Shown here: positions 25,934 to 29,912 of the stretch, in pieces | How positions within the stretch are numbered: the stretch's first letter is position 1 | Layout: the number at the start of each line of letters is the position of its first letter | Assembly: GCF_016026235.1 (NCBI RefSeq) | Contig: NZ_CP065613.1 | Source of the DNA: Escherichia coli | GTDB taxonomy: Bacteria > Pseudomonadota > Gammaproteobacteria > Enterobacterales > Enterobacteriaceae | Direction: 5' to 3' (one strand) | Length of the DNA: 64,000 nucleotides | Translations under genes and position numbers: made by a program | The notes under the pieces: model-generated | Told to the model about the DNA's origin: nothing | Seen by the model: the letters and a program-made list of their open reading frames with translations, nothing else | The model's database searches: none

Positions 25934-28683
<2,750 letters not shown>

Positions 28684-28892
28684 TTATTTCGCATCCTCTT
28701 CGCAAACACAGTGCTGACAATTCAGCAGCCTGATATTAAGCATTCAACTAATACGCTGCTGACTCTGTCCCCAACACCAGATATTTTCCCTAACCCGATA
28801 GTGTATGAGAAAAGATTTAACGCCGATAAACTAATCCTTTATGGTTTTATGGTTAGGAGAAAAAATAATGTGATTATTCTGAGCCCTTAACA

Positions 28893-28906
28893 TTGATCGT
28901 TATCAA
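28893..28906. promoter_or_regulatory. FNR/CRP-family site (perfect FNR consensus) upstream of ydhY
   Basis: TTGATCGTTATCAA = TTGAT-N4-ATCAA, ~210 bp upstream of ydhY start in AT-rich intergenic DNA. Confidence 0.65.
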
Positions 28907-29146
28907 TTAAAATTACAAAGCAAGAAATTATAAGTGAACTGATATTTATTATCATTTGAAATAAATTTAACTTAAGCGACAATTATTTGTGACGTTCATT
29001 GCAGAAAATAAAAATAATATTATCGTTATAAATTAAAATACATACCGCAATTCGTATAATTTCAGCAGTTGTTATTTAGAATGATTAACTGGACCGCAAC
29101 TGAAGCAAGAATATCAGGATGAAGCTTACCGCCTCATCCTGAATGG

Positions 29147-29356
29147 TCATTTTACCAGTGCGTTAATGACGGTTTCCATCGCCTGCTTTTCCAGCTCACT
29201 GCGCTGAATGCGTTTATTGGCTAATGCTGTACGTAATACGCCTGCGATAACAATATGCTTTGGTTCCTGCCCCAGATCGCGCATTTCCAGCACAACTTTA
29301 CCGACAACTCTGCACATTTCTCGGTACAGTTCATCCTCTTTTGTCCGATTTCCCAT
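29147..29356 (-). CDS. fumD: Small protein YdhZ (FumD, fumarase D)
   Basis: 69 aa ORF. Confidence 0.8.
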   Translation of the reverse strand: MGNRTKEDELYREMCRVVGKVVLEMRDLGQEPKHIVIAGVLRTALANKRIQRSELEKQAMETVINALVK

Positions 29357-29912
29357 TCTTTATACCTATTTATCATGCCAACTATCAGCATATATCAATC
29401 TAACCAATTAAACAAAAATCAAACAAAATCAGACAAATAACGCGATAAATTATTTTAACTATAGCAATTGAGCGATGATATATTTATACACCGGATGAAC
29501 TTTCACTTATCCTCACACTGACAACTTTGGCACCAGACGTTGCGCAAACAGCGAAGTTTTTGCGTAACCTTTTCCCTGGAACGTTAAATCTTTGATAACA
29601 ATTTATTGTCTAACAAGTTGTATATTTTTTGAAACGCTGTTTTTGTTTTCCTTTTGGATTAATTTCAGCGTATAATGCGCGCCAATTGACTCTTGAATGG
29701 TTTCAGCACTTTGGACTGTAGAACTCAACGACTCAAAAACAGGCACTCACGTTGGGCTGAGACACAAGCACACATTCCTCTGCACGCTTTTTCGATGTCA
29801 CCTATCCTTAGAGCGAGGCACCACCACTTTCGTAATACCGGATTCGCTTTCCGGCAGTGCGCCCAGAAAGCAAGTTTCTCCCATCCTTCTCAACTTAAAG
29901 ACTAAGACTGTC

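Follow-up and report, generated by a model that had tools for sequence, protein, structure and literature searches.

In the 64,000-nucleotide stretch of Escherichia coli contig NZ_CP065613.1 analysed here (the window), the DNA from 28857 to 29047 upstream of ydhY is probably a composite control region of ydhYVWXUT, the operon for the molybdoenzyme YdhV and its partners. It combines a known FNR site close to the core promoter with a conserved 24-bp palindrome further upstream, which is likely to be a ModE-type operator and would be bound by ModE. The original prediction had described a part of this palindrome as a near-copy of the FNR site, and had proposed that the pair is either an activator site with a decayed duplicate or a two-site arrangement. 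There are indeed two sites, but the second is a different and independently conserved palindrome of the ModE-operator type, not a further FNR site. The composite control region, the ModE-type operator and a convergent origin of the similarity between the two sites belong to a single explanation, which we regard as likely when taken as a whole.

A ModE-operator-like palindrome and its conservation

The near-copy makes up the ydhY-proximal half-site and the spacer of the palindrome at 29024-29047, the centre of which lies 136 bp from the centre of the FNR site. The conservation of the second copy across relatives had been named as a check in the original prediction. In a multi-species alignment, the conserved letters of the block around the near-copy form the inverted repeat CG.TAT.T ... 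A.ATA.CG, and the conserved columns are not those of TTGAT/ATCAA. This block resembles what we take to be the ModE operator of modA, which prompted a comparison with operators of K-12. For this comparison, the K-12 upstream regions of modA, moaA, dmsA and napF were used, since these operons are treated as ModE-regulated in the literature. Each of the four regions contains exactly one match of 13-15/16 to CGTTATAT-N8-ATATAACG. Given as left half, spacer and right half, these are CGTTATAT, TGTCGCCT and ACATAACG for modA, CGCTATAT, ACATGATT and ACATAGCG for moaA, CGATGTAT, ACAAGCCT and ATATAGCG for dmsA, and GGTTATAA, ATATATTT and ATATAGCG for napF. A match of 13/16 or better is reached by one sequence in 200 kb of arbitrary K-12 DNA and by one in the window, the ydhY site.

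A position weight matrix (PWM) was built from the eight half-sites of the four K-12 operators, with the ydhY site excluded. The window site reaches 17.4 bits, compared to 17.7 bits for its K-12 counterpart. It is the top match of the window, with a runner-up at 12.9 bits, and the best match in the 200-kb K-12 control has 13.7 bits, none reaching 14. The palindrome agrees with 13 of the 14 specified positions of CGnTATrT-N8-AyATAnCG, and it is the only match to this pattern in the window when up to one mismatch is allowed, compared to 0.06 expected. Exact enumeration with independent and identically distributed backgrounds gave 5e-7 to 1.2e-6 per position, which amounts to 2-6 chance sites per genome and ~5e-4 in the spacer between ydhY and fumD.

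Conservation was assessed in 27 sequences, namely 25 Escherichia/Citrobacter loci with enough upstream DNA (one genome per species), K-12 and the window. The palindrome is the best PWM match in the 620 bp upstream of ydhY in 25 of them, with scores of 15-22.9 bits and runner-ups of 2-12 bits. The distance between its centre and that of the FNR site is 136 bp in all six Escherichia and 143-149 bp in Citrobacter, mostly 147 bp. This commonest Citrobacter distance is longer by 11 bp, one helical turn, and the insertion lies just upstream of the Fur-like box. In each half, conservation reaches at least 90 % at C1, G2, T4, T6 and T8, with variation at positions 3 and 7 and in the spacer (25 distinct versions). 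The four K-12 operators show the same pattern of constraint. Among eight E. coli strains, the 24-mer has three single-nucleotide polymorphisms (SNPs), located at position 3 of each half and at the last spacer base, and none on the 14 specified positions. This conservation with the constraint pattern of the motif itself supports a function of the palindrome. In the same eight strains, 29009-29056 is a local SNP hot spot with eight variable columns in ~50 bp, which flanks and threads the palindrome; the FNR site, the Fur box and most of the other spacer DNA are invariant.

Limnobaculum allomyrinae, from another enterobacterial lineage (Budviciaceae), also has a palindrome of 21.8 bits and an FNR site with one mismatch upstream of ydhY. 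Two Limnobaculum loci carry such palindromes, one at ~2531-2554 of L026 (21.8 bits, 8-bp spacer) and one at ~2529-2550 of L025 (18.9 bits, 6-bp spacer), ~311-314 bp upstream of the one-mismatch FNR site TTGATAACGATCAC. They are situated in the spacer between ydhY and a divergent gene for an EamA-family transporter, which is unrelated and uninformative. In Leminorella, an FNR-like site only was seen.

The FNR site and the direct repeat

The FNR part of the finding was known before this analysis. The exact TTGAT-N4-ATCAA palindrome upstream of ydhY lies where the original prediction had placed it, matches the consensus at 10/10 positions and precedes the ydhY start codon by 210 bp. It is the single exact match in the window, compared to 0.14 expected from shuffles, at least one being present in 13 of 100 shuffles. 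Its proposed role as an FNR activator site has been published. Myers et al. 2013 (PMC3688515) give one FNR site for ydhYVWXUT, at -42.5, citing Partridge et al. 2008, and their supplements contain an anaerobic FNR chromatin immunoprecipitation (ChIP) peak at ydhY with the motif TTGATCGTTATCAA beneath it. In the same work, the operon is classed as FNR-activated in three data sets, and the FNR ChIP signal at ydhY increases from 0.29 to 1.82 (~six-fold) in an hns/stpA mutant, which points to occlusion of the ydhY upstream region by nucleoid proteins. The half-sites are invariant in all 27 sequences, with AACG, GACG, AGCG, GATG or AATG as the N4 spacer. Fixed half-sites around a free spacer are the footprint of selection that would be expected for the site of a dimeric regulator. 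The sequence CACATTAT at the probable -10 region is nearly invariant in the multi-species alignment as well.

The near-copy TTATCGTTATAAATTAAAATA is present, although it comprises 21 nt at 29020-29040 and not ~22 nt at ~29019-29040, and the start-to-start offset is 126 bp where 127 bp had been given. Its placement next to the 3' end of fumD was loosely worded, as 107 bp separate it from the fumD stop codon (29147), and the terminator hairpin lies in between, 74 bp away. The repeat proper has a length of 18 nt, and its copies are 17/18 identical in the window. Of 1000 dinucleotide shuffles of the 463-bp spacer, 1 produced a 17/18 direct repeat, as did 4 of 1000 block-wise shuffles with preserved local composition. 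The similarity of the copies in the window strain therefore exceeds chance (0.1-0.4 % of shuffles).

Copy 1 is invariant in the eight E. coli strains compared. The copies agree at 17/18 positions in the window and at 16/18 in K-12, with values of 11-14/18 for other Escherichia, including E. whittamii, and of 8-13/18 for Citrobacter. Of 5426 complete E. coli genomes, 356 contain the exact 50-mer of the window around copy 2 and 2008 contain the K-12 version, so the window version of copy 2 is a minority allele.

Competing explanations and a possible molybdate input

The original proposal, under which the near-copy would be a weak additional FNR site or a duplicate of the first that has decayed, is regarded as highly improbable. 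The 17/18 repeat of the window strain, which is rarer than chance, and the offset of 126 bp, equal to 12 helical turns, are in agreement with this proposal. However, when read as an FNR site, the near-copy (29019-29032, ATTATCGTTATAAA, ATTAT-CGTT-ATAAA) matches only 7/10 consensus positions, with the G and C lost in both half-sites, and the window contains 337 matches of this level compared to 271 expected, or about one per 190 bp. Furthermore, a single motif is given for ydhY by Myers et al. 2013 (PMC3688515), and the conserved positions of the upstream element are those of the outer-end CG..TAT.T instead of TTGAT/ATCAA. On the consensus mismatch and this conservation pattern, the second copy was rejected as an FNR site. 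An ancestral duplication was rejected on the phylogenetic gradient of copy identity. For a decaying duplicate, a closer resemblance would be expected in lineages that retain the ancestral state. Instead, the copies resemble each other most in E. coli proper (16-17/18) and least in the outgroups, so that their identity falls and does not rise in relatives.

The 17/18 resemblance is instead probably due to convergence and not to descent. On the ydhY-sense strand, the FNR element reads ATTTTAA-TTGATAACGAT and the upstream element ATTTTAAT-TTATAACGAT. One source of the resemblance may be the left FNR half-site with the unconstrained spacer AACG (TTGATAACGAT), which reads like a ModE half-site (TTTATAACGAT, tTATAACG), and another may be the A/T-rich flank of the FNR site, which resembles the A/T-rich ModE spacer. 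The spacer and flank of the FNR site and the ModE spacer would be free to drift, and in E. coli they appear to have drifted together. The resemblance dissolves in species with the FNR spacer GACG or the ModE spacer ATTTAATT. Short direct repeats in A/T-rich promoters can, in general, stem from convergence between unrelated operators, and the correction is a useful result in itself, as the apparent decayed copy is a separately conserved site that probably belongs to another regulator, of the ModE type.

Another explanation would be that the upstream copy is functionless, a chance resemblance within an A/T-rich, H-NS-coated spacer in which the ModE-like palindrome is coincidental. This would be in line with the G+C content of 21-26 %, with the increased FNR ChIP signal in the hns/stpA mutant, which suggests that nucleoid proteins occupy the region, and with the few sites of such a score that are expected per genome by chance. 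Nevertheless, it is improbable, given that the palindrome is kept in 25 of the 27 orthologous sequences at a near-fixed distance, with changes at degenerate and spacer positions while the flanks drift, and that chance does not explain a palindrome beside a molybdoenzyme operon. Alternatively, the palindrome may be functional for a regulator other than ModE, or for a plus-strand promoter that gives rise to a fumD-antisense RNA, which we consider unlikely. A consensus scan did find a promoter-like site with 10/12 matches on the plus strand that overlaps the palindrome, and ModE reportedly controls antisense genes elsewhere, which was counted in favour of an antisense function. Despite its match to the consensus, this promoter is not conserved and was rejected as a candidate: its TATAAT is not retained in E. 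whittamii or in further Escherichia clades, and one E. coli strain carries a mutation in it. The motif match is, moreover, specific to the four ModE operators, and we know of no other E. coli regulator with an 8-N8-8 motif, which was counted against a different regulator.

Several points weigh against the assignment to ModE. The PWM was built on four sites that had been picked by a scan with an assumed consensus. Although clearly above the background (at most 13.7 bits in 264 kb), the ydhY site with its 17.4 bits falls short of the four training operators (19.6-23.1 bits), the scores of which are biased upward as training sites, and one of its half-sites ends with A instead of T, as does the left half of napF. 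A region with 21-26 % G+C favours TATA-like words, although a G+C-poor background still gives ~1e-6 per position. The palindrome is missing in C. sedlakii (L021) and at a second ydhY paralogue locus of Citrobacter sp. NCU1 (L024), both of which keep the FNR site; the other ydhY locus of Citrobacter sp. NCU1 (L009) has the palindrome. The 143-bp spacing in the C. amalonaticus group departs from a strict helical phasing. In addition, a position of ~-178.5 is far upstream for an activator, the one precedent that we are aware of being napF, presumably at ~-133.5.

If the palindrome is a ModE-type operator, the promoter may work as follows. FNR at -42.5 activates transcription anaerobically as a class II activator. 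A dimer of molybdate-bound ModE would bind the far-upstream operator, ~136 bp from FNR (13 helical turns; 14 in most Citrobacter), and would raise FNR-dependent transcription, presumably as an activator. The distance, the near-integral helical spacing and the G+C content of 21-26 % suggest that this could occur by bending or looping of the very A/T-rich DNA or by relief of an H-NS/StpA silencing that limits the occupancy by FNR. As at dmsA, napF and moaA, the ModE input would tie enzyme synthesis to the availability of molybdate, and the apo-enzyme would not be made in its absence. The Fur site at ~-90 would add an iron input, and the NarL/NarP heptamers in the early leader a nitrate input.

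The enzyme family of YdhV normally uses tungsten, and to our knowledge YdhV is the sole known bis-Mo-MPT protein of E. coli. Since the operon encodes this molybdenum enzyme, the bis-Mo-MPT cofactor of which has been described (PMC9103625, PMC13328260), a ModE site fits its function. Judging from sequence, ydhYVWXUT may itself be a so far unannotated direct ModE target that couples YdhV synthesis to molybdate supply, which is put forward here as a tentative proposal. A full-text literature search, which missed key ModE papers and Partridge 2008, returned no link between ModE and ydhY or ydhV and no molybdate- or ModE-dependent expression of ydhY. The modE gene is annotated in K-12, and the mod locus lies outside the window.

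If ModE does bind, the ydh operon would join dmsA, napF and moaA as a molybdate-gated anaerobic operon, and its promoter would integrate oxygen (FNR), molybdate (ModE), iron (Fur) and nitrate (NarL/NarP). This would be the first regulatory clue that ties the orphan oxidoreductase YdhV to the physiology of molybdenum and not of tungsten, and it would support the use of molybdenum by the enterobacterial members of its enzyme class. It would also provide a simple handle for inducing the native operon, namely anaerobic growth with molybdate and iron and without nitrate.

Other features of the locus and comparison with known promoters

The region around the finding corresponds to ydhV-ydhY-fumD(ydhZ)-pykF of E. 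coli, with pykF beyond fumD on the plus strand (Table 1). Of 5426 complete E. coli genomes, 5425 match a 651-bp query that spans the intergenic region, and the same genes are annotated in them. The spacer between ydhY and fumD shows 99 % column identity to K-12 MG1655 in the alignment, and the segment from 28850 to 29100, which spans the whole upstream control region, is very A/T-rich with the G+C content given above. In two complete E. coli genomes (NZ_CP101666.1 and NZ_CP072976.1), IS1 is located within the ydhY-fumD intergenic region; there, the query match is in two pieces and an IS1 transposase is annotated between them.

Table 1. Positions of the features at the ydhY-fumD locus in the window. 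Positions relative to transcription refer to the inferred ydhY start.
Feature	Position	Strand	Sequence	Description
FNR site	28893-28906		TTGATCGTTATCAA	Class II activator site of the minus-strand ydhY promoter; centre 28899.5 = -42.5
Inferred ydhY transcription start	28857	minus		Computed from the published -42.5 of the FNR site
Probable -10 hexamer	28865-28870	minus	CATTAT	-13 to -8; from the distance implied by FNR at -42.5
ModE-operator-like palindrome	29024-29047		CGTTATAA-ATTAAAAT-ACATACCG	24 bp, N8 spacer; centre 29035.5, ~-178.5
Direct repeat, copy 1	28896-28913	+	ATCGTTATCAATTAAAAT	Repeat search; overlaps FNR site and A/T-rich flank
Direct repeat, copy 2	29022-29039	+	ATCGTTATAAATTAAAAT	Repeat search; coincides with left half and spacer of the ModE-type palindrome
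Fur-box-like palindrome	28940-28954	read on minus	TGATAATAAATATCA	Centre ~-90; 1 mismatch to 7-1-7 motif, 14/19 to 19-bp consensus
CRP-like block	28988-29003	read on minus	TGCAATGAACGTCACA	Centre ~-138.5; 2 mismatches to TGTGA-N6-TCACA; weak assignment
Promoter-like site	29033-29060	+	TTAAAA-16-TATAAT	10/12; overlaps ModE-like palindrome, points antisense into fumD
NarL/NarP-type heptamers	28832-28855	minus	TAACCAT, then AAACCAT-AA-AGGATTA	Heptamer scan; early leader
ydhY coding sequence	28057-28683	minus		First gene of ydhYVWXUT; open reading frame list and RefSeq annotation of matching E. coli records
fumD coding sequence	29147-29356	minus		Open reading frame list
fumD intrinsic terminator	29114-29142	minus		12-bp stem with 6 G-C pairs, then TATTCTT

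Between the two palindromes lie further candidate elements. In the Fur-like box, AATGATAATAAATAT is nearly invariant across Escherichia and Citrobacter. A Fur pan-regulon study contains Fur ChIP-exo peaks upstream of ydhY in the strains KO11 and 042, and its RNA sequencing table for W3110 gives log2 fold changes of -7.3 for ydhY and -5.4 for ydhV in a contrast that is presumed to be fur-related. Both genes belong to the Fur-2 iModulon. The box fits these published peaks and the large change in ydhY expression. The conserved block with the CRP-like pattern extends to ~28975 and reads GTCACAAATA(A/T)TTG, and TG.GA-N6-TCACA recurs in the alignment. Its centre is 40 bp from that of the ModE-like palindrome, and its core in Citrobacter is the near-palindrome TCACAAATATTTGTAA. 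A scan for IHF sites between the ModE-like and the FNR site gave one match with one mismatch, at 28918-28930. A high-affinity H-NS motif was discarded as unconvincing, with ~7/10 positions matched in a comparison by eye.

The inferred leader of ydhY comprises ~174 nt (28684-28857) before the ATG at 28683. The heptamers in its early part are assigned to NarL/NarP according to what we take to be the published positions, and the operon is reportedly repressed by NarL/NarP (Partridge et al. 2008, Microbiology 154:608). The window strain carries an 8-bp tandem duplication in this part, TTTATGGT TTTATGGT at 28838-28845 and 28846-28853 (~+4 to +19). The K-12 equivalent is TAACCAT-AA-AGGATTA in a 7-2-7 arrangement, which is split by the duplication with the creation of a third heptamer. 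Neither K-12 nor seven further E. coli strains have the duplication, and among complete E. coli genomes none matches over the full query, the best reaching 89.4 %. Going by these motifs, the duplication could alter nitrate repression in the window strain. Blocks of the leader, among them the inverted repeat CCTAACC ... GGTTAGG (28784-28795 and 28851-28862), show conservation that extends to Citrobacter. An Rfam scan of 28500-29400 for riboswitches or other known RNAs gave only two meaningless hits (E 3-4), and the fold of the leader is not unusually stable (z = -1.2).

The locus is that of the ydhYVWXUT promoter of Myers et al. 2013 (PMC3688515), with the same TTGATCGTTATCAA at -42.5, bound in ChIP and FNR-activated, and the window strain differs from the published promoter by the 8-bp duplication in the leader. 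A further comparison is with promoters that have tandem FNR sites, where two similar upstream sequences are likewise found on one face of the helix. However, the second element at ydhY fails the FNR consensus at the specificity positions and is conserved for another pattern. With the operators of modA, moaA, dmsA and napF, the ydhY palindrome shares the 24-bp inverted repeat CGnTATrT-N8-AyATAnCG, but it scores lower, lies further upstream, has a spacer consisting entirely of A/T and is putative for ModE. To the extent that the cited reference lists indicate, dmsA, napF and moaA are anaerobic molybdoenzyme or molybdenum cofactor operons controlled by FNR and ModE together, and ModE is cited as a co-regulator of other such operons through a conserved DNA element. 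A ModE-type operator at ydhY would therefore be another case of a well-known operator family and not a new kind of element. The napF promoter resembles that of ydhY in that both combine an anaerobic activator close to the core promoter with a response regulator for nitrate and with a ModE-type palindrome at a distance of over 100 bp upstream. In K-12, the napF palindrome is located 210 bp upstream of the napF ATG, and its FNR, NarP and ModE sites are presumably centred at -64.5, -44.5 and -133.5. Compared to napF, the FNR site of ydhY is of class II, and ydhY has an additional Fur box.

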